58,281 bases of DNA from a virus. Lineage: Duplodnaviria; Heunggongvirae; Uroviricota; Caudoviricetes. The translations under genes and the position numbers were made by a program. The stretch's first letter is position 1. Every line of letters begins with the position of its first letter. The notes under the pieces are model-generated. The model worked only from the letters and a program-made list of their open reading frames with translations. It ran no database searches and was not told the origin of the DNA. Location: the IMG/VR virus record IMGVR_UViG_3300012942_000032, positions 1-58,281 of that record. The stretch is one strand, 5' to 3'. Below, piece after piece: positions 21,272-52,874 of the stretch.

Positions 21272-21631
21272 TCACCAATCGTATCTGAAGCTGCCGCATC
21301 CCGCTGCAATCACTTCTTCACGCCAAGTATTAAGGACGTCTTCTGAATAGGTACCTCTGTCTACAATACGATCCCACAGATCTTTGTACGATGAAGATTC
21401 CCTTCTCTCCATATAGAATTCGTCGTACAAAGTGCTTCCTGGTTCGAGGATGTCAATAAATCCATCGCCCCAATTGTCCGTAGGAAGATACTCATCTACA
21501 AGTTCAAATGCTTCCCATCGCTCGTTCAAAGGGCGAGTATTATCAGCGATAAACTTACGATATTGATCAATAAGATGATCTCGTAGATTTCCGATCTCAT
21601 TAACCAAACTATTGAAATACTCAATCGTCAT
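21272..21631 (-). CDS. hypothetical protein
   Basis: acidic; ends GCGSFRYDW. Confidence 0.7.
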   Translation of the reverse strand: MTIEYFNSLVNEIGNLRDHLIDQYRKFIADNTRPLNERWEAFELVDEYLPTDNWGDGFIDILEPGSTLYDEFYMERRESSSYKDLWDRIVDRGTYSEDVLNTWREEVIAAGCGSFRYDW

Positions 21632-22799
21632 TAGAATCTCCAAAATTGGAATTATACACACTTCTCAAATTGTATTCTTTTTCAAATCGATCAGACCACA
21701 TCTTCTTATAATCTAAATCTTTTCCGCGCATCTTGTTCATCAAAGTTCCGAAACTATATGGCAGAAGATCTTTTGCAACAAATGCCACCTTCGACCAATA
21801 TTCTCTAGAATTATCTTCTTCAATACCCGATTCACGTAGCAACCTACGGCACTCTGATTCTAGTTCATTCCATTGATCTATGATGCACTGAAGCTCTTTC
21901 AAAACCTTGCTTTCAATCTTTTCGATAATCGCAAGATCTAAACCTCGTTCGACTGCTGTGGATTTGATGTCATCGATGGTTTCGTCAATCACCATTTTTG
22001 CAACATCGCGTTCACGGAGATCTAACAAACGGTGTCGTGAAAGATACCATTTAGTCTTCAGTTTCACTCTTTGTCCGTTAGGAAGAATGATAACCCAACC
22101 TTCTAGATCTTCTTGGGTCTCTACCCATTCCTTCAAAAGACTCCATGAAGGATTCGAGTAATATTCACCTATCCAGGAAACGTCGAAGAAGAGTGACCAA
22201 GGATTCTCAAGAATTTCTTCATCAGCATAGACATATGATCCATCGCTGATAGTTCTGATTGCAAGCAAAGTGAATTGAGGCTCTTTGCCATAGTCAATCA
22301 CAATCTTTGAATCAGGTGACGTATATTCAAAGATTGGTGTATAACCTAGTTCAATGCAAATTTTACAAGAGTCGATAAATCCAGGAATCTTTTCTGCATC
22401 TCTCTGAGCTGCAATTGCTACGTCAGAATAGAAAGACTTCTTGGTCTTAAACCTGACTTCCCCATTACACAAGACAGGAGTAAGCATTGAACCATCGCGC
22501 TTCTCTTGGATTCGCACCCGTCCTGAATCAAAAAGCTTCTTGATCAGATGTTCTTGAGTGAATTCATTCTCATTCAGATTGAAGAATTTCTCAAAGGGAC
22601 GAGCAACGATGTCTCCATGTTCATTAAACACAATTCCACGACATTCAAATCCATTCTTGCGCTTCCAGATTTCAGGATCAGAAATCATGTAGGTGCAAAT
22701 AGTGAAATTCGCTCCATTTACTTCTTGAGTCTGAAATCTTACTGCAGAAAGATCGATGAAGGTATCACGAAGTTCATTTTCGTGGAATGCAGTGAACAT
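21621..22799 (-). CDS. rnlA: RNA ligase 1 (T4 Rnl1/gp63-like)
   Basis: ECRGIVF, FEKFFNLNE, EKRDGSM (KxDG), TPIFEYTSP, EGWV, KLKTKWY. Confidence 0.92.
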   Translation of the reverse strand: MFTAFHENELRDTFIDLSAVRFQTQEVNGANFTICTYMISDPEIWKRKNGFECRGIVFNEHGDIVARPFEKFFNLNENEFTQEHLIKKLFDSGRVRIQEKRDGSMLTPVLCNGEVRFKTKKSFYSDVAIAAQRDAEKIPGFIDSCKICIELGYTPIFEYTSPDSKIVIDYGKEPQFTLLAIRTISDGSYVYADEEILENPWSLFFDVSWIGEYYSNPSWSLLKEWVETQEDLEGWVIILPNGQRVKLKTKWYLSRHRLLDLRERDVAKMVIDETIDDIKSTAVERGLDLAIIEKIESKVLKELQCIIDQWNELESECRRLLRESGIEEDNSREYWSKVAFVAKDLLPYSFGTLMNKMRGKDLDYKKMWSDRFEKEYNLRSVYNSNFGDSNDD

Positions 22800-27204: not shown

Positions 27205-28302
27205 TTAGGCTTCCGCAAGTAGGTATTGCTTGCTGATACTCTTGAAAGACGGAACATTACCATCCTGCACGTCGAGGGACTTAAACACAAGACCTTCGCG
27301 TGCAGTTTCTGCGAGCTGTGATTGACCGTCAGCTTCATTGATGATATGCTCGATATCGACACCATCCAGCATCACACTTCCGATCACAGGCGCAGTTTTC
27401 ACTTCCAAGCCAGTCGATTCCATCAGCTGAATGAACAGCTGACGTTCAGGAAAGGCCATATAACGCTGGAAGTTACCAACGAACACGTCGAACACACGAA
27501 TCTCGGTTTCGGTCAGACCGTAGATGTTGCCCTGAATGTTCGGACCAATCAGCTCACCGCGGATAGCAATCATCGGCGGCTCTTCGGGCATAACTTCCTT
27601 GCCCATATCGTGGTATTGTTTCAGGAAGTCGAGAAAACCGCTCTTCTTTGCAGCATCGACGAAAGCATTGCCTTCCTGTTCCAGCTTCAGGTCCATGTTA
27701 CGCGAAGTAACGCCAACATCACCTTCACGGTTCACGTACAAGGTGATCGAAGAACCTTCCAACTTCTCCTCAACCACAAAGCCCGACTTGAAGTAACCAC
27801 GATTCTCGAAGCTGCGGTAGCAATTCTGGATGCGCTCTTGATCCGTCTTGGGAATCCAGTGCGGATAGTTGCCGCGAATCAGACCTGCCAGCGACGCATG
27901 GATCTTCGGTTCGTATTTGTATACGCCCAGAAGTTCGTCGAGTTGAGCATCTGCACCAACGGTCAGTTCAGCTTGGATATGTTCTTCCGTAATCTCGGGA
28001 AACTGACTGAGCGGAAGAGCGAGTCCTTGCGAAATCTGACCACGCAACTTTACGGTGCGAAGACGTGCGCCCAGACCCTTCTCGAACTGCTTGCCCTGCT
28101 TGTCGATCAGGAACTTGAACTGGGGAAGGTCCGGAAGAATCGAATCAATTTCGAAGAACACGCAAAGATCTCCGATCTTGAATTCACCCTTCTTCGACAC
28201 AACCTGCCAGCCATCGACATTCAAGACCTCGATAGCATCAGCATTGGGAATCGGATCAATTCGACCTACTTCACGAATTGTTACCAGCTTGCGCTCAGAC
28301 AT
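27205..28302 (-). CDS. RNA ligase, DRB0094/Rnl2-like family
   Basis: N-terminal OB-like PIPNADAIE..VDGWQVV..KG; KTDQERIQN; EKLEGSS; REGLVFK; SFKSIS. Confidence 0.92.
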   Translation of the reverse strand: MSERKLVTIREVGRIDPIPNADAIEVLNVDGWQVVSKKGEFKIGDLCVFFEIDSILPDLPQFKFLIDKQGKQFEKGLGARLRTVKLRGQISQGLALPLSQFPEITEEHIQAELTVGADAQLDELLGVYKYEPKIHASLAGLIRGNYPHWIPKTDQERIQNCYRSFENRGYFKSGFVVEEKLEGSSITLYVNREGDVGVTSRNMDLKLEQEGNAFVDAAKKSGFLDFLKQYHDMGKEVMPEEPPMIAIRGELIGPNIQGNIYGLTETEIRVFDVFVGNFQRYMAFPERQLFIQLMESTGLEVKTAPVIGSVMLDGVDIEHIINEADGQSQLAETAREGLVFKSLDVQDGNVPSFKSISKQYLLAEA

Positions 28303-28687
28303 CGTTGCCCACCTCAATTGCTTCAAGATCGTAGTAACCGGAATTATCATCTTTGATGGTGTCTTCCAATGCACTATTGATCTCGAAGATCTGATTATGC
28401 AGTTCGTTGAACCCTTCCGACTTGTTCTTGAACACCTGCAGTTCTTCTTCGCTCAAGCCAGCCATTTCCGCCATCTCAAGGAAGAACTCGAAGTTGGGCT
28501 TGGAACCCGAGATCTCGTCTAAAGCAACCGCTTTGCTAAGTGCAAGCCTCATCAGAAACAAGACACAGTTCAGATCAGAAGCAAAAACGCCTACAGGCAG
28601 ATCGTCCTTGATGGTCTCGAGATCGATGAAATCGTTCAATTCTTTCACGATAACGTCGAACGCACGAGCCTTGGTGTTAATATTCAT
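28295..28687 (-). CDS. acidic hypothetical protein
   Basis: ORF; paralog-like with the next gene. Confidence 0.65.
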   Translation of the reverse strand: MNINTKARAFDVIVKELNDFIDLETIKDDLPVGVFASDLNCVLFLMRLALSKAVALDEISGSKPNFEFFLEMAEMAGLSEEELQVFKNKSEGFNELHNQIFEINSALEDTIKDDNSGYYDLEAIEVGNDV

Positions 28688-46755: not shown

Positions 46756-48056
46756 TTTAATGTTGCCTTTTCAATTTCAAGAATCTCGGCATAGGTATTA
46801 GCCGTATTCTTATCAAGCCTGCGATCAATAATCCGGGGAAGGAACAAAGATTCGGTAGTACGCTTCTTATCCTTGGAGGTGATACGTTCGTTGTAGCGCA
46901 CCGTCCAGATCGAGCCGATCACATCGTCATTGTATAGACGATCGGACTCACGATCTCTTTGTTCGATACCAGTGCCAACGGAGCACTCGATCTTGTGATC
47001 TGCATCGCGCATGATCAGAGCACCGAGTTTGCCTTCGTTCTTGGTACCCTTCTTACCTTCTTCATAGCCGATACATTCCATCTCGATATCGATCATGTCT
47101 TTCATCTTGCACAGGTCGTAACTGCGCTTCGGAACCCATTTGTGATCAAGATTCTTGACGATGGTACCTTCCAGCTTCAGTTTGCGCATTTCACGGAAGT
47201 GTTCCAGAGCCTCAGCATCGTCGTGTACTATCCTGGTCTCAATCAGCATGATCTTGGAGGTTGGCTTACGCTCCAGAAGATCACGTAGAGCACCAAGGCG
47301 AGTCTGATACGGAATCTTCGAGGTTGTATCCACAATATCCCAGGTCAGGGAATGTATCAGTGATGCTTGTTCCTTGGAAATCGTGCCCTTGATGGCCTTG
47401 TTGATGATACCATTACTGGTCTTGCGATCGAGAGGTTTACCGTTCTTGTAACAAACGAGTTCGCCGTCGAGAGTGACATCTTGATTGAAGATGTTATCCA
47501 TCGTTCCCAAGATATCAATTAGCTGACCAGAACGTGCAAATGCAGTCGCTTCTCCGTTCTCATGAAACTCAAGATGGCAACGTACACCATCTGCCTTCAA
47601 CTGTGAATAAGCGGGGAATTTGATTCGCGACAGATCGGAATGACACGTCATCACGTCGAAGGTCGGCACAAGATCCTTCCAGACCTTGTTCGCTGTCGAT
47701 TCAGAGAAGCCGGCGCGCAAATCCTTCAGGATGACGCGCATCAACAGCGTTGCATCGTCAGGGTCTACATCACCTAAGATACCAGCGACATAATCCAATG
47801 CAGCTTGCCCTGTTCTGTGTCTGTTGACAATATTCTGCTCCAGACAATATAGAGCGCTCCCAAGAGGTAAACTATTCTCACCTATGCGATGCCTGGGCTC
47901 CACTGCCTTTGCAATGTAAAAGCGTACAAAGGGACTATACGCCATCAAAATGACACGTTGCAGAAGTTCGTTATCTTTGTTCCTTCGAAGAATTGCTTCT
48001 TTCTCCAGCTTAGAGCTGGTTGCAGCAATTTCCTCGATAATCTGAAGGATGCTCAT
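46752..48056 (-). CDS. 30: ATP-dependent DNA ligase (gp30-like)
   Basis: SKLEKEAIL N-terminus, QLKADGVR (KxDG), LDGEL, EGTIVK, CSVGTG, SLFLP. Confidence 0.95.
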   Translation of the reverse strand: MSILQIIEEIAATSSKLEKEAILRRNKDNELLQRVILMAYSPFVRFYIAKAVEPRHRIGENSLPLGSALYCLEQNIVNRHRTGQAALDYVAGILGDVDPDDATLLMRVILKDLRAGFSESTANKVWKDLVPTFDVMTCHSDLSRIKFPAYSQLKADGVRCHLEFHENGEATAFARSGQLIDILGTMDNIFNQDVTLDGELVCYKNGKPLDRKTSNGIINKAIKGTISKEQASLIHSLTWDIVDTTSKIPYQTRLGALRDLLERKPTSKIMLIETRIVHDDAEALEHFREMRKLKLEGTIVKNLDHKWVPKRSYDLCKMKDMIDIEMECIGYEEGKKGTKNEGKLGALIMRDADHKIECSVGTGIEQRDRESDRLYNDDVIGSIWTVRYNERITSKDKKRTTESLFLPRIIDRRLDKNTANTYAEILEIEKATLK

Positions 48057-48088
48057 TGCATGGTCCTGTTTGGTGGAATCATGCTAAC

Positions 48089-48117
48089 ATTATACGAAAT
48101 TTTCAAGCAGAAGTCAA
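48089..48117 (-). promoter_or_regulatory. sigma70 early promoter
   Basis: TTGACT-17nt-TATAAT. Confidence 0.85.
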
Positions 48118-48149
48118 GTGATTATCTGCAAATATCTATGAAATATTCT

Positions 48150-48485
48150 TCAATTCTTTTTGCGAGATTTCTTAGAAACTTCTTTAACAGGAGCATCTTC
48201 ATTTGCATTCACTACCTTCATAAATGTCTTATATGTAGTGACATAATAGAAGGATGAGTAATGATGAGCAAATTCTTCACCCATAGTTCCATCAGGCTGA
48301 ACTTCAATCATTGTCCAGGTGTTCGATAGACGACCGTATGTGGGATCTAGGTAATATCCATTCCCTACAACAGCAAGAAAGAATTTTCCATCAGAATCTT
48401 CTAAGGCAACCAGATCACCTCTAGAAACAGATGAGTTCGCAGTCTTGCTAAAATCAATATCAGATTTTTCTACATAGAATTTCAT
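48150..48485 (-). CDS. hypothetical protein
   Basis: ORF. Confidence 0.65.
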   Translation of the reverse strand: MKFYVEKSDIDFSKTANSSVSRGDLVALEDSDGKFFLAVVGNGYYLDPTYGRLSNTWTMIEVQPDGTMGEEFAHHYSSFYYVTTYKTFMKVVNANEDAPVKEVSKKSRKKN

Positions 48486-48494
48486 TCTTCTTCC

Positions 48495-49007
48495 TTAAGC
48501 TACTTTTCCAATACTTCTGTATTCGAGTCTCTTATTAGCAATCTTCGCAACATTGATTGCTAATTCCATTGCCTGGGTAATTCCCATATCAATGTAGACT
48601 ACTACAAGATCTGCATGTTTAATCCAGATCAATTGAGATTGCAGACCAATATCTCTCTCAATTGATAGATTGCTATTCAGCACTTCGTAATAGAAATAAT
48701 GATTAGCAACAGGTGCTTCATTCTTCAGAACAGAATCTTGAAGACATCGTTTAGCATATCTCTCCATTCGTCTAGCTTGTGACGGATCTTCTGCCATAAA
48801 AGGCGATAGAATTACCGCAGCTTTACGATTTGGTTTTGAGACATGCAGAGCTAATTGTGCAGGTTTATTGGCAAGATTGGTATCTACATGATAGACGCCT
48901 TTCTTAGAAGGATCGTCTTTAGCAATAGGATCTTTTACTGTACCGCCAGTCTGAAAATGTGGTGCAATAATCCTTTCAAAGAGCTCGTAAGAAATTTTAT
49001 CAGTCAT
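48495..49007 (-). CDS. nucleoside deoxyribosyltransferase-like fold protein (DUF4406/DUF7768-like)
   Basis: ILSPF...YAKRCLQDS...EAPVANH...ERDIG...ADLVVVYIDMGITQAM. Confidence 0.65.
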   Translation of the reverse strand: MTDKISYELFERIIAPHFQTGGTVKDPIAKDDPSKKGVYHVDTNLANKPAQLALHVSKPNRKAAVILSPFMAEDPSQARRMERYAKRCLQDSVLKNEAPVANHYFYYEVLNSNLSIERDIGLQSQLIWIKHADLVVVYIDMGITQAMELAINVAKIANKRLEYRSIGKVA

Positions 49008-49038
49008 AGTTATCTCCCTATGACTTATTTACAATAGA

Positions 49039-49067
49039 AAAAGCCCGCAAGAACATTGCGGGCTTTT
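49039..49067. terminator. rho-independent terminator
   Basis: AAAAGCCCGCAA-GAACA-TTGCGGGCTTTT. Confidence 0.9.
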
Positions 49068-49072
49068 GGAAG

Positions 49073-49309
49073 TTACTTGTTGAGTGCGGAAGTCATATCA
49101 CAATACTTGTTGTATTTGTTCAGTTCGCCGCCCCGTAGCTTGTACGGATTCGCCCTGATTCCCCAAGTCTTCAATTCTTCCTTGGCACAACTACCGCCCT
49201 TTTCCTTACCCCTGGTTTGTGAGCGAGCTTTTACACTCTTACCAAGCCTACGGGACGTGGTTGCCATGCCGTAGAAACCTTCAGCGTTCGGAACTCTTGT
49301 TGCTCGCAT
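49073..49309 (-). CDS. basic hypothetical protein (or structured RNA)
   Basis: AAGGTG RBS; GC-rich with several stems. Confidence 0.5.
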   Translation of the reverse strand: MRATRVPNAEGFYGMATTSRRLGKSVKARSQTRGKEKGGSCAKEELKTWGIRANPYKLRGGELNKYNKYCDMTSALNK

Positions 49310-49320
49310 TATATCACCTT

Positions 49321-49584
49321 TTAGTATGCTGGTCGCCAACTACCATCTTTGGGCATTTCATCTGTGATATCAGACTTTGCCCAAGACAGAAACTTTTCTT
49401 TTGTAATGATCTTGTATCTGGAACCTGTCTTAACAGTAGGCCCATCGTATTGGACTTCAAAGAGACCGACCCAAATGATTTCTCGATCATTCCATACAGG
49501 AAGAACAAGACTTCCTGTTTTGGAAGGTCTCTTTGCACAAAAGACTCTTCCTACTTTAAGATCTTCTGCTTTCAGTTCACTCAT
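49321..49584 (-). CDS. conserved phage hypothetical protein
   Basis: NDREIIWVG..VQYDGPTVK.G..Y...EKFLSWA..D.T pattern. Confidence 0.7.
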   Translation of the reverse strand: MSELKAEDLKVGRVFCAKRPSKTGSLVLPVWNDREIIWVGLFEVQYDGPTVKTGSRYKIITKEKFLSWAKSDITDEMPKDGSWRPAY

Positions 49585-49592
49585 AGTAATTC

Positions 49593-49880
49593 CTAGAAAG
49601 CGTTCTGATTACAGATTTGTTTGCCATCAGAACCTAGTCGAGGAGTCATCGATCTTCCAGGAAGATTGAGATATTGGCAACCAGTCTGAGGATCAGTGAA
49701 GATGGTTACACCTTGCATTTGATCCCTGGTCTGATCACGGACTATCTCTTGTCGATGTTCTCGAGCCCACTTTTCAGGATTGGCATGTTTCTGGTAAGCA
49801 GGAACAGCAATTGCAGCCAGAATTGCGATGATTGCAATCACGATCATCAATTCGATCAGTGTAAAACCTTTCTTAAGCAT
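49593..49880 (-). CDS. type IV pilin N-terminal domain fused to a DUF6440-like domain
   Basis: [30 protein letters not shown]; [10 protein letters not shown]...[11 protein letters not shown]. Confidence 0.88.
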
Positions 49881-50133
49881 GTTGAGGATAACTCCCAAGA
49901 GGAATCAATGCCGTCCAATTGACGTTTTCATTTGTTGCAAGGAAGAAGTCTTCGTTTGGAAGAGCATCATCGTAGTGAGGAATTTCCTCCAGAAACTTAT
50001 CACAGAACTTTGTTCTCCAATGAATGAAACAATTTCTGTTTCCATCCCAGCGAGCAATCGAAGCATTCCTACACCTACCATCGTAATAGGCACCGTGCTT
50101 CAGATCTTCCTTCCTAACCATCGGTGGTGCCAT
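49873..50133 (-). CDS. conserved phage hypothetical protein
   Basis: L.HGAYY.G.CRNA.IARWD...F..WR.KF pattern. Confidence 0.7.
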
Positions 50134-50302
50134 TGCTCTCTTCCAGTTCTGAACTATAGAGACTGCCATCTTCTTCGTAGACAGCTTCACCATCGATCTT
50201 AATCGTCACCCAGGGAGAACTACAGCAACCACAACCGCCGATACCAACTTCAATACCACGATCTTTCAGAATCTGAAGAACTTCGCTACGATTCATAATC
50301 AA
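50114..50302 (-). CDS. small protein with a GGCGCCSSP motif
   Basis: IGGCGCCSSPWV. Confidence 0.65.
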   Translation of the reverse strand: MIMNRSEVLQILKDRGIEVGIGGCGCCSSPWVTIKIDGEAVYEEDGSLYSSELEESNGTTDG

Positions 50303-51351
50303 CTCACATTCAGTATGATGAAATGCTCACTGAACCTGCCAGTGTTCATGGAAGTCTCCTTGTTGCGGATATCCTTGAAGAGCTTATTCAGCTCACTGAT
50401 AGCAGGTTTGCCGTTAAATGGTTTGAAGACGTTTTCAGGATTACTAATCCGTTTGGTGCCTGATGTTCCCAGATCAACATTCAAAAGAGTAGTTCCCTTG
50501 AACGTAAACCCTTGCTCTGTTGCGTTGAACAAGATGATACGCTTGTACTTGGAATCGTAGATATAAATCTTCTTCTTTCCAAGTACATCTATCGGATGAA
50601 TAGATTTCAGTTTCAACCTATCATCTTCTTTCTGGAACTTCACTTTCGAGACAACCTTATTAGGATTGACCTTTCGTGGTTTCCTGGTGGTAGTTGCAAC
50701 CCTGCGAGTTTTCTTTGCTTCTGTGCCCTTAGAACATTTCTCAATAATGTCCCTACAAGCTGCCTTCAAAGGTTTCAGCGTCGAAGGAAGAAAATAATCA
50801 GGTTCATCAAGAAGATCTCCAAGTAGCTCCTTCGCCATCTCAGAAACTACTTTGAGATCGTCCTCGTAGTCTACAAAGAAATTGTAAGGTTGCCCACAAC
50901 AAGCCGCATCGAGATATTCTTCTGCCAGACCGTAGGTCTTATTGATCTTGGCAACCTGTCTTTTAACCCTCTTAGGAGAATCCGCAATAGGATTACCATC
51001 CTCATCTAAAGACTGCGCCTTCTTAGGCTGCAAATTAGAGAAGTGATTAATCAATCTATCGAAATGCTCATCTTCCAACGGCATACCGTTGGTATGCAAT
51101 CTGCAAAGAGCACCATACGTCATGAAATCTGAAGCTGCGGCTTTTTCCATCTTGGAAATCAGTTCTGGACAATTCTCCTTTGCCCAATGAAGCGCATATG
51201 CTTTCAGCTCATCGTGCTTGCAATTCCTAGCGTAGAAATTCAAGCCGTTTACTAAATCTATCTTGTTCGGAAAGAGAGATTTGAACTTGGGCTCTGTTGA
51301 GCGTCCAATAAGTTCATTTGCCAATGCCTGGCTCTGAGCTCTTTTCCCCAT
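50299..51351 (-). CDS. conserved T4-like hypothetical protein
   Basis: GLNFY, TYGALCRL, KLKSIHP..VLG...YDSKYK, KGTTLLN.D, GRFSEH.II. Confidence 0.75.
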   Translation of the reverse strand: MGKRAQSQALANELIGRSTEPKFKSLFPNKIDLVNGLNFYARNCKHDELKAYALHWAKENCPELISKMEKAAASDFMTYGALCRLHTNGMPLEDEHFDRLINHFSNLQPKKAQSLDEDGNPIADSPKRVKRQVAKINKTYGLAEEYLDAACCGQPYNFFVDYEDDLKVVSEMAKELLGDLLDEPDYFLPSTLKPLKAACRDIIEKCSKGTEAKKTRRVATTTRKPRKVNPNKVVSKVKFQKEDDRLKLKSIHPIDVLGKKKIYIYDSKYKRIILFNATEQGFTFKGTTLLNVDLGTSGTKRISNPENVFKPFNGKPAISELNKLFKDIRNKETSMNTGRFSEHFIILNVS

Positions 51352-51383
51352 CTTTGCAATCCCAATCTAATTGTTATTCTAAC

Positions 51384-51523
51384 AGAATGGGCGGGACGAT
51401 TCATAAGTCTTATGGCTCCAATGTCCAGCTTACTACTGCCCGCCCATTCTCGCATGTAGATGAGGTACTACTTAAAGGTTACATATCAGACTCCTTTGTA
51501 TGTGGTACAACCTTTCTACACGC
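51384..51523 (-). ncRNA. candidate two-domain structured RNA
   Basis: AGAATGGGCGGG/CCCGCCCATTCT 12-bp repeat; GCGTGTAGA/TCTACATGC, AAGGTT/AACCTT, ACATA/TATGT. Confidence 0.55.
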
Positions 51524-51540
51524 ATATTCTACATTTTTAG

Positions 51541-51771
51541 TCAGGCGATGTCAACGAATTTTTGCTTAAAGTTTGAAATCCCGCCGTAATATTCACCATC
51601 AACAAAAATTTGTGGAACAGTCTTTACAGGAACTGGACAAGCTTCCATCAAATCTTGAATTTCATAGTCAACACCAAGCTTCTTTACTTCATAGTCCCAT
51701 CCCTTGTGAGAACAGATATTAACAGCTTCTTGGCAATTGGGACAATTTTCTTTAGAGTAAATCGTAATCAT
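51541..51771 (-). CDS. nrdC: glutaredoxin
   Basis: IYSKENCPNC...TVPQIFVDG..GG. Confidence 0.95.
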   Translation of the reverse strand: MITIYSKENCPNCQEAVNICSHKGWDYEVKKLGVDYEIQDLMEACPVPVKTVPQIFVDGEYYGGISNFKQKFVDIA

Positions 51772-52874
51772 AGAGTGGGAAGTTCCTCGTAATTCAGTTC
51801 TGTTGTCATTACACCAATCACGTAACTGGTGGATTCTGATTCTTGGAGTGCAGTCTGCTTAGAGCTCAGATTAACATGCTTCAAGAACCAAGGAATAGGG
51901 TGACTCTTAGGAATTTCATCGCATCTATACTTGATACCAATGTCCTTAAGCTTCTCCCATGCAGTCCAATCAACAAAAGAGCATAGAATTCTTTCGTTTA
52001 GACCAATGACAACACCTTCTTTACAAAGATAATTTGCCCATTCCTTCTCTTCACGAATAACATCAGCGTAAATCTGATAAACTTCTTCTGCACAATCAAT
52101 CTTCAGACGTGCAAAGTCAGGATCATCCTTTACTACTTGATTGATAATCCAAGCTGTCCATTCTGTATGAAGGAGTTCGTCTTGCAAAATCAACTCAATA
52201 ATGTTTCCATTACCAATGAAAATCTTGTTCTCCATCATTGCAAGCGACGTTGCAAAACTTACCATGAAACGAAGAGCTTCTAGTGCATAAGAAGCATGAA
52301 GTGCTAACCAAACAGCCTTCTTATGATCATAAGGTTCTACGTGGCCAAGACCTAATTCATTTATAGAATTCAGCTCATAAAGATCTTCATAATATTTGCC
52401 AACATTAGCAGCCATTTCTACAATAGGTTGAATATTGTAGATGTTATCAAATACTTCAGAAGGTTTGGTATAGATATTTCTGATAATATGGCTATAACTA
52501 TTAGAGTGAATGTTGGTCTCCATGAAGGACCAGACACTCATCAGAGCTTCTAGTTCTGGAATAGAACATGCAGGACCAAAAACAACAGACGGAGCTTTCC
52601 CTTGAAGTGAATCAAGGGCAGTCTGTCTCAGAAGATTAGAAGTGAACATATGCTTGATGGCAGCAGATGCCTCCTTCATATCTTGCTTGTCTTTGGTCAA
52701 ATCAATTTCTTCAGGTTGCCAAAAGAAACCTCTTTGAACTTTTTCATAGTTCTGGATTTTAGGATACTTCACAGTATCAAATCTCTGCAATGTGACTGGA
52801 CCACGTGGATCCAGAAACATTGTTCTTTCTAGGTATTCAGGATCTTTGGATAGATCGTATTGACCATTACTCAT
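51768..52874 (-). CDS. nrdB: ribonucleotide reductase class Ia, beta subunit
   Basis: FFWQPEEI, DSLQG, ETNIHSNSY, EALRFMVSF, DELLH. Confidence 0.97.
   Translation of the reverse strand: MSNGQYDLSKDPEYLERTMFLDPRGPVTLQRFDTVKYPKIQNYEKVQRGFFWQPEEIDLTKDKQDMKEASAAIKHMFTSNLLRQTALDSLQGKAPSVVFGPACSIPELEALMSVWSFMETNIHSNSYSHIIRNIYTKPSEVFDNIYNIQPIVEMAANVGKYYEDLYELNSINELGLGHVEPYDHKKAVWLALHASYALEALRFMVSFATSLAMMENKIFIGNGNIIELILQDELLHTEWTAWIINQVVKDDPDFARLKIDCAEEVYQIYADVIREEKEWANYLCKEGVVIGLNERILCSFVDWTAWEKLKDIGIKYRCDEIPKSHPIPWFLKHVNLSSKQTALQESESTSYVIGVMTTELNYEELPTL

Follow-up and report, generated by a model that had tools for sequence, protein, structure and literature searches.

An IMG/VR phage record encodes a 95-residue protein (P0001) in which the leader and N-terminal helix of a type IVa prepilin are joined to a small domain of the DUF6440 family. 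We analyzed the window, that is, the whole 58,281-nucleotide stretch of DNA carrying this gene, which comprises the first 58 kb of a 156,730-bp record estimated to be 87% complete. From the sequence, we give about an even chance to the interpretation that the hybrid protein is processed by host PilD and, as a decoy or tether, disturbs or re-tools type IV pili for superinfection exclusion of pilus-dependent phages. Phage-encoded pilin-like proteins and modular pilins are both known; what appears to be new here is the predicted fusion of a pilin cut down to its alpha1-N segment with DUF6440.

Few phage receptors are as common as type IV pili, which also serve bacteria in motility, adhesion and DNA uptake. 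Pilin look-alikes encoded by phages have been shown to be anti-phage devices only recently, in the case of P-FimU, and the known examples are confined to prophages and to proteins with a full pilin fold. P0001 keeps only the part of the pilin that is recognized by the assembly machinery and PilD, the rest being a phage domain. Should the proposed function prove correct, it would show a virulent phage disabling or re-tooling pili within a single infection cycle, and would provide the first functional handle on DUF6440, a domain present in phages of at least six host genera, as well as a compact pilus inhibitor.

Architecture of the hybrid protein

The coordinates of the hybrid gene, its modules and its neighbors are listed in Table 1. 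Two observations favor the ATG at position 49880, rather than the TTG further upstream at 49898, as the start codon: the homologues begin with MKxxG, and this ATG shares nucleotides with the stop codon of the preceding ORF (ATGCTTAAG). The predicted protein consists of four parts, namely, the MLKKG leader, a 25-residue hydrophobic stretch (FTLIE...P-A-Y-Q), a charged segment (residues 31-56) and the C-terminal ~40 residues.

Table 1. Features of the hybrid gene and its surroundings, with other genes of the record mentioned in the text
Feature	Position	Strand	Remarks
CDS of the prepilin-DUF6440 hybrid P0001, 95 aa	49593..49880	-	stop codon 49593-49595
Leader MLKKG, residues 1-5	49866..49880	-	basic, ends in Gly(-1); predicted prepilin peptidase cleavage site
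Pilin alpha1-N helix, residues 6-30	49791..49865	-	type IVa major-pilin type; PF07963, TIGR02532
Charged linker, residues 31-56	49713..49790	-	helical up to residue 52 in the AF2 model
DUF6440 mini-domain, residues 57-95	49596..49712	-	PF20037, invariant columns, AF2
350-aa protein, first of the cluster	50299..51351	-	phrog_11903; conserved in Stenotrophomonas phage Mendera and related contigs
106-aa ORF, upstream of the hybrid gene	49873..50193	-	phrog_18490; stop overlaps the hybrid ATG
87-aa ORF, downstream of the hybrid gene, same cluster	49321..49584	-	phrog_9722
Sigma-70-like promoter match TTGACA-17-TAGAAT, upstream of the cluster	51526..51554	-	11/12; consensus match only; candidate early
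Intrinsic-terminator-like hairpin, closes the cluster	49039..49067	-	12-bp stem followed by a T run
Second sigma-70-like match TTGACT-17-TATAAT	48078-48117	-	11/12; directly upstream of the DNA ligase gene
NAMPT, 585 aa	16562-18319	-	NAD salvage
Two RNA ligases, RnlA-like and RnlB-like	21621-22799, 27205-28374	-	
Second prepilin-like gene, same record	G000:C1:76740-76865 (= L007 ~1426-1551)	-	beyond the window; product of ~41 aa

The N-terminal region of P0001 has all the features of a class III signal, with a short basic leader, Gly at -1, Phe at +1 and Glu at +5 relative to the predicted mature protein, a hydrophobic helix of ~20 residues, and Pro at +22, followed by Y24 and Q25. The first-pass annotation of this DNA had described the leader and helix of a type IVa prepilin, including E5, followed by a short DUF6440-like domain that is not of the pilin kind and has two cysteines, and both parts of this description were borne out. 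The N_methyl domain (PF07963) was detected in residues 3-26 (E 3.2e-9, 36.4 bits vs a Pfam cut-off of 21.2), and the NCBIfam prepilin model TIGR02532 scored 40.4 bits against a cut-off of 16.3. In PHROGs, the protein matched pilin-helix families together with full-length families of unknown function, such as phrog_8801 and phrog_11767. The pilin head model PF00114 gave no match on P0001 at E<=1 in the Pfam search, with the PilA proteins of Dyella, used as a positive control, scoring 71 and 62 bits, and equivalog models of pilins and pseudopilins covered only residues 3-48, far under their cut-offs, those of PilA aligning with just residues 3-34 (46.7 vs 138 and 38.7 vs 400). By these sequence comparisons, P0001 is devoid of a pilin head and is not a PilA.

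The likeness to PilA ends after approximately residue 30. In residues 31-56, 44% of the amino acids are charged and 16% are large hydrophobic ones, compared to 20% and 32-40%, respectively, in the alpha1-C of two Dyella pilins; across the seven homologues described below, the equivalent segment is 24-48% charged, and large hydrophobic residues account for 12-20% in six of the seven and for 24% in P0252. Unlike the pilin alpha1-C, the linker appears not to be amphipathic. P0001 shares with PilA (PF07963 + PF00114, represented by Dyella L012) the leader, G-1, F1, E5, P22 and the alpha1-N segment (23 of 27 positions for P0001, 26 of 27 for the Dyella prophage homologue P0003), but differs from it in having no PF00114 head, in the length of the mature protein (90 aa vs ~144 aa), in being charged rather than amphipathic after Q25, and in the location of the cysteine pair, which falls in DUF6440 and not in the pilin D-region.

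The Pfam hit to DUF6440 (PF20037; residues 45-90, E 1.4e-6, 28.4 bits vs 26.5) is marginal. Nevertheless, an exhaustive profile-free search with residues 38-95 alone retrieved 199 cluster representatives at E<=1e-3, nearly all of them small proteins of the DUF6440 type, and these related clusters, together with the invariant core columns, uphold the call. The core motif is TDxxTGCQYL...TPR..xDGxQxC, and D63, C68, Y70, P80 and C90 are invariant in an alignment of 138 DUF6440 sequences. The two cysteines are C68 and C90, both within this domain, and presumably form a disulfide in the periplasm.

Inspection of the N-termini of 152 listed DUF6440 proteins showed that nearly all have a plain transmembrane or lipoprotein-type anchor in a protein of 55-135 aa; a prepilin start is present in only 7, leaving 145 without one, and the N-terminal anchors of the ordinary members have no sequence in common. 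In the C-terminal ~40 residues, with the TGCQYL...TPR...DGxQxC motif, in its size (60-110 aa) and in being encoded in an early or accessory phage region, P0001 resembles these proteins (PF20037; phrog_8801, phrog_11767, phrog_14094), among which Aeromonas phage 56 gp10 and Rhizobium phage L338C_091 are examples. It departs from the usual architecture in that a prepilin signal and helix replace the transmembrane helix or lipoprotein signal, and, judging from these sequences, the pilin anchor on DUF6440 is a rare swap. Unrelated phages, whose hosts are Aeromonas, Pseudomonas, Rhizobium, Ralstonia, Xanthomonas and Bacillus, encode canonical members in their early accessory regions. DUF6440 is a phage-enriched periplasmic module, normally carried on other anchors.

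A separate observation is that some very large proteins, secreted or on the surface (P0123, P0125, P0135 and P0141), contain 3-12 copies of the DUF6440 core of ~33 residues in tandem; they include two proteins with collagen repeats (925 and 1,729 aa) and one with a TPS domain (1,446 aa). The repeats suggest that the core is a generic extracellular beta-hairpin unit; no functional hint was found in the large repeat proteins (collagen-repeat, TPS-secreted) matching DUF6440. In the searchable literature, DUF6440 is named in a single paper, on an unrelated subject, and neither P0001 nor either of two ordinary DUF6440 proteins was matched by PADLOC.

An AF2 model of P0001 built from the 138-sequence alignment (mean pLDDT 87) consists of helices at residues 8-33 (pLDDT 92-97) and 35-52, followed by a small beta domain at residues 59-90 (core pLDDT 90-96, with 93-96 over most of the domain); when modeled alone, DUF6440 forms an antiparallel meander of three to four strands (pLDDT 85.6). 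With the full model, a Foldseek search of the PDB yielded no match at E<=0.001, the best pilin match being weak (3sok_B, E 1.3, TMq 0.29), and a wide VIA-align search yielded only generic long helices, with Z<=4.9. With the DUF6440-only model, the best Foldseek match was vaccinia G3/L5 (E 0.9), and the VIA-align matches were mostly single beta-propeller blades (best Z 4.2). In the ESM Atlas, all clusters retrieved were either DUF6440 or unnamed. The predicted fold of DUF6440 is therefore best described as a small antiparallel beta-meander, and the fold searches yield no functional lead.

Homologues and the pilins of Dyella telluris

In a search of an index of 5.8 billion proteins, the only full-length relatives of P0001 were P0002 (71% identity) and P0003 (58%, Dyella telluris), with thousands of further matches to the pilin helix alone. 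Altogether, seven DUF6440 proteins start with G-F-T-L-I-E (P0001, P0002, P0003, P0124, P0127, P0134 and P0252). In the alignment of the seven, the homologues are 53-68% identical to P0001 overall, and K3, G5, F6, T7, L8, I9, E10 and P27 are invariant along with the DUF6440 core. Gene order is conserved between the window and three T4-like metagenomic contigs that carry homologues (L003, L008 and L009); the non-syntenic homologues come from another large phage, one short contig and a ~100-kb Dyella telluris prophage (L002). A Q-x-H-x-x-P stretch follows the helix in all but one of the seven prepilin forms, pointing to a common origin of the six that have it. The DUF6440 domain tree, computed from 38 columns and 138 rows, contained no strongly supported branch and is compatible with the prepilin anchor having been gained once or several times. 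A megablast search with positions 48000-52000 of the window produced no match among GenBank phages. In IMG/VR contigs generally, prepilin-like genes are common, the helix pattern having been confirmed in at least 350 cases.

The codon-level comparison of five of the seven prepilin-DUF6440 genes gave pN values of 0.14 for the leader and helix, 0.26 for DUF6440 and 0.50 for the linker (residues 31-56), which is thus the fastest-evolving module, with synonymous change at saturation (pS 0.76-0.82; 0.76 for the helix). By this measure, the hybrid is a conserved coding gene, and the pilin part is its most constrained part. The hybrid is not a chance occurrence, given that pN is far below pS and that the 156.7-kb record contains only one other prepilin-like match, which scores under the cut-off.

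Dyella telluris is the one case in which both the element and the host are known. P0003 is encoded at ~127.7 kb on the chromosome, amid genes for ribonucleotide reductase (RNR), dUTPase and thymidylate synthase and dozens of small ORFs. The surrounding element (L002, G001:C1 ~65-138 kb) encodes an integrase at 65.5 kb, a terminase at 101.7 kb and an RNR-glutaredoxin fusion, and a T4 gp23 was not found in it. The presence of a copy in this integrated element indicates that the family also occurs in a large temperate element. A gene in a 102-kb IMG/VR provirus (L035, 102,485 bp) matches residues 1-91 at 58%, and this provirus most likely is the same Dyella element. At ~100 kb, the element is unusually large for a temperate prophage.

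The Dyella telluris genome encodes 17 distinct prepilin-type N-termini. From Gly(-1) onward, P0003 is identical in 26 of 27 positions to the 151-aa major pilin PilA with a PF00114 domain (L012), including all of mature residues 1-25, and in 24 of 27 to a second PF00114 pilin, with only 6-20 identical positions in the remaining prepilin-type proteins, that is, minor pilins and pseudopilins. P0001 itself matches the two Dyella PF00114 pilins in 23 of 27 positions each and the other Dyella prepilin-type proteins in 7-19; GspG-like pseudopilins match the helix in 10-12 of 27. The comparison of the helix with the host PilA, which had been proposed as a check, therefore came out positive for the Dyella prophage and its own host; for the protein from the window, the comparison is with the Dyella PilA only.

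At the DNA level, the prophage helix differs from the host pilA at 9 of 81 bases (72 are shared), and among the 26 residues that agree, 7 are encoded by synonymous codons, which argues that the identity of the helix has been kept by selection at the protein level and does not reflect a recent copy. The GC content is 41.3% in the window, 58.5% in the Dyella prophage region and 61% in the Dyella pilA region; because of this difference, the host of the window phage is probably not Dyella, despite the common gene family.

A T4-like phage with a variable accessory slot

The record contains a T4-type major capsid gene, gp23 (PF07068, 413 bits), along with genes for gp32, a gp5-like baseplate hub, a tail-tube cap, a primase and two RNA ligases, as well as NAMPT, thymidylate synthase, class I ribonucleotide reductase and an ATP-dependent DNA ligase. 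Neither a tyrosine integrase (PF00589) nor a prepilin peptidase (PF01478) was found in the 156.7-kb, 87%-complete record. With this gene content, the assignment as a virulent T4-like myovirus is well supported by the sequence at the given completeness of the record, in agreement with the earlier description of a lytic phage. The nearest cultured relatives by gp32 and DNA ligase infect Stenotrophomonas and Xanthomonas, with identities of 61% and 41%, respectively, to the Stenotrophomonas Menderavirus group and of 57% and 43% to Xanthomonas phages X1 and BUDD. NAMPT and RNA ligases are typical auxiliary genes of large T4-like phages, and those of the window are included in Table 1.

The hybrid gene belongs to a minus-strand cluster that consists, in this order, of the genes for the 350-aa protein, a 62-aa ORF, the 106-aa ORF, the hybrid and the 87-aa ORF. 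No Pfam domains were identified in the neighbors of the hybrid gene. The overlap of its start codon with the preceding stop codon suggests translational coupling to the 106-aa ORF. Together, the promoter match at 51554 and the second one at 48078-48117 suggest a series of minus-strand early transcription units, to be read with the observation that promoter-like sites in general show no enrichment over shuffles.

A recurring gene order, RNR, glutaredoxin, 351-aa protein, small ORFs, hybrid, DUF7768, DNA ligase and PNKP, was identified in three contigs. In phage Mendera (L115), a 338-aa homologue of phrog_11903 directly abuts the DUF7768 gene, and no prepilin motif was found in the corresponding region. 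The number of small ORFs between the phrog_11903 and DUF7768 genes varies, with four here (49321-50302), one to five in the related contigs and none in Mendera. Given this variation and the empty slot of Mendera, the hybrid gene is an accessory gene in a variable slot; because the syntenic Menderavirus slot is without it, the gene is dispensable for this type of phage.

Beyond the window, the same record encodes a second prepilin-like protein, which is helix-only, starts with MKKFQKGFTLVELI and ends with HFIGKFW; PF07963 scores 19.2 bits on this peptide, under the cut-off (E 2.4e-4). As far as sequence similarity goes, there are two different pilin-derived genes in one phage record.

Predicted role in pilus interference and competing explanations

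Sztanko et al. (Cell Rep 2026, PMC12952977) showed that prophage homologues of FimU (P-FimU) are incorporated into Pseudomonas pili and block tip-binding phages, and reported PilA-like proteins of putative function, including helix-only ones of ~60 residues, in Xylella prophages and in virulent phages of four groups. Hence the precedent of prophage pilins blocking pilus-dependent phages, invoked in the first-pass annotation, is real. P0001 is similar to P-FimU, P-PilA and the truncated PilA proteins in being phage-encoded and having a prepilin signal and a pilin helix. However, P-FimU and P-PilA have a full pilin fold and can be superimposed on their host counterparts, whereas the head of P0001 is the unrelated DUF6440 domain and its likeness to host pilins, rather than extending over the whole length, ends at about residue 30; furthermore, the block has been shown for P-FimU, whereas P0001 comes from a T4-like myovirus and is known here from sequence alone. 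Many bacteria have modular pilins, onto which further domains are grafted (Raynaud et al., PNAS 2021, PMC8179133). As in PilB and PilC of Streptococcus sanguinis, a class III signal is followed in P0001 by a grafted domain unrelated to type IV pili (PF07963 + PF20037 in one 95-aa chain), but the Streptococcus proteins are cellular and carry a bulky adhesion graft on a complete small pilin module, unlike the tiny graft on alpha1-N only in the phage protein.

Under the mechanism we consider, the hybrid would be transcribed early from the sigma-70-like promoter. Prepilins insert into the membrane in an N-in, C-out orientation and are cleaved and methylated by PilD, and the resulting inner-membrane pool feeds the assembly platform. 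The hybrid would be inserted in the inner membrane in the same orientation, host PilD would cleave it after Gly5 and N-methylate the product, and the product would join the pool of mature pilins. By virtue of its PilA-like helix, it might then be taken up by the type IVa pilus assembly platform, where the missing pilin head would cap or poison the growing fiber, or else DUF6440 would be parked at the machine or on the pilus. Functional pili would be removed or altered as the outcome; the likely benefit would be to shut out competing pilus-dependent phages, and a possible additional benefit would be to stop pilus-mediated uptake or motility during infection. Pilus-dependent phages are common in Xanthomonadales. 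To our knowledge, T4-like phages do not use pili themselves, so the benefit would only be against other phages; the protection of progeny from adsorption that had been suggested initially presupposes that pili are the receptor of the window phage. Overall, that initial reading is partly supported. The T4 immunity proteins Imm and Sp, as well as lipoprotein exclusion proteins such as T5 Llp and Cor, were considered as possible analogues, and no search result links them to the hybrid.

Several lines of evidence are consistent with the decoy interpretation. The sequence features that define a prepilin are all present in P0001, with scores above the curated cut-offs, and the eight invariant residues of the leader and helix are retained despite the much lower overall identity among the homologues. 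An early role can be inferred from the neighborhood of early-type nucleotide-metabolism genes, the 11/12 sigma-70-like match and the putative translational coupling. By analogy, P-FimU and the PilA-like or truncated PilA genes of virulent phages (PMC12952977) lend plausibility to the proposal, and in Stenotrophomonas, the genus infected by the nearest cultured relatives, phages are proven to use type IV pili as receptors (PMC6024842).

An argument against the decoy is that, in 145 of the 152 proteins, DUF6440 works on plain anchors in many phages, so that the effector could be DUF6440 itself. The helix would then be a membrane anchor only and DUF6440 a periplasmic effector with its own target, other than the pilus machinery. 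The three interchangeable anchor types, the lack of pilin features in most members, the location of canonical members in early accessory regions of unrelated phages, and the purifying selection on the DUF6440 core itself are all compatible with this possibility. We regard it as the main rival, but consider it unlikely: a simple anchor has no need for invariant G-1, F1, E5 and P22, for near-identity to a host PilA, or for a constraint stronger than that on the effector domain. Because the helix is the most constrained part, and the anchors of ordinary DUF6440 proteins share no sequence, the constraint seems to be on pilin identity rather than on mere hydrophobicity. The conservation of the helix and its near-identity to the Dyella PilA, as opposed to minor pilins and pseudopilins, thus favor a pilin-specific role over that of a mere anchor.

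An involvement of pili would also be compatible with the hybrid being polymerized in the fiber or at the tip of pili or pseudopili, where it would display DUF6440 and change their properties, such as adhesion or receptor masking, leaving assembly unblocked. The class III signal followed by a non-type-IV-pilus domain fits the published definition of a modular pilin (PMC8179133), P-FimU is incorporated without loss of pilus function (PMC12952977), and the homologue in the temperate Dyella prophage is found precisely where long-term conversion would make sense. However, known modular pilins retain the complete pilin fold (PMC8179133), whereas in P0001 no pilin module was detected beyond alpha1-N (no PF00114 match at E<=1), the alpha1-C-equivalent segment has many charged and few large hydrophobic residues, and the best pilin match to the model is weak, so we regard such a role as quite improbable. 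Still less probable, and indeed hardly to be expected, is that the protein is a substrate sink, abundant early expression of which would saturate PilD, or feed the protein into the T2SS pseudopilus, and thereby block the maturation of both pilins and pseudopilins. PilD is common to type IV pili and the T2SS, and the canonical cleavage motif of P0001 and the service of PilD to both systems would be in line with such an effect. Nevertheless, the helix fits PilA and not GspG-like pseudopilins, saturation of the enzyme has no need for a conserved DUF6440 domain, and a cheaper means to that end would be the mini-prepilin, helix-only, that this phage encodes at another locus.

Within the preferred interpretation of interference with pili, a more specific and considerably more speculative version, which we hold as a tentative and rather doubtful one, is that the pilin helix is an address label that delivers a DUF6440 effector to the type IV pilus machine or fiber, making the hybrid a pilin-guided inhibitor for superinfection exclusion used by virulent T4-like phages and by the Dyella prophage. 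Taken together with the mini-prepilin, large virulent phages might then routinely carry several pilin-derived tools, and, if this is true, several such tools per phage would reprogram the type IV filaments of the host.

Because the record is without a prepilin peptidase of its own, processing of the hybrid would need a host that makes type IV filaments, and the piliated host implied by the first-pass annotation is a reasonable expectation. The helix itself is a modest clue to that host, pointing to a proteobacterium with type IVa pili and PilD.
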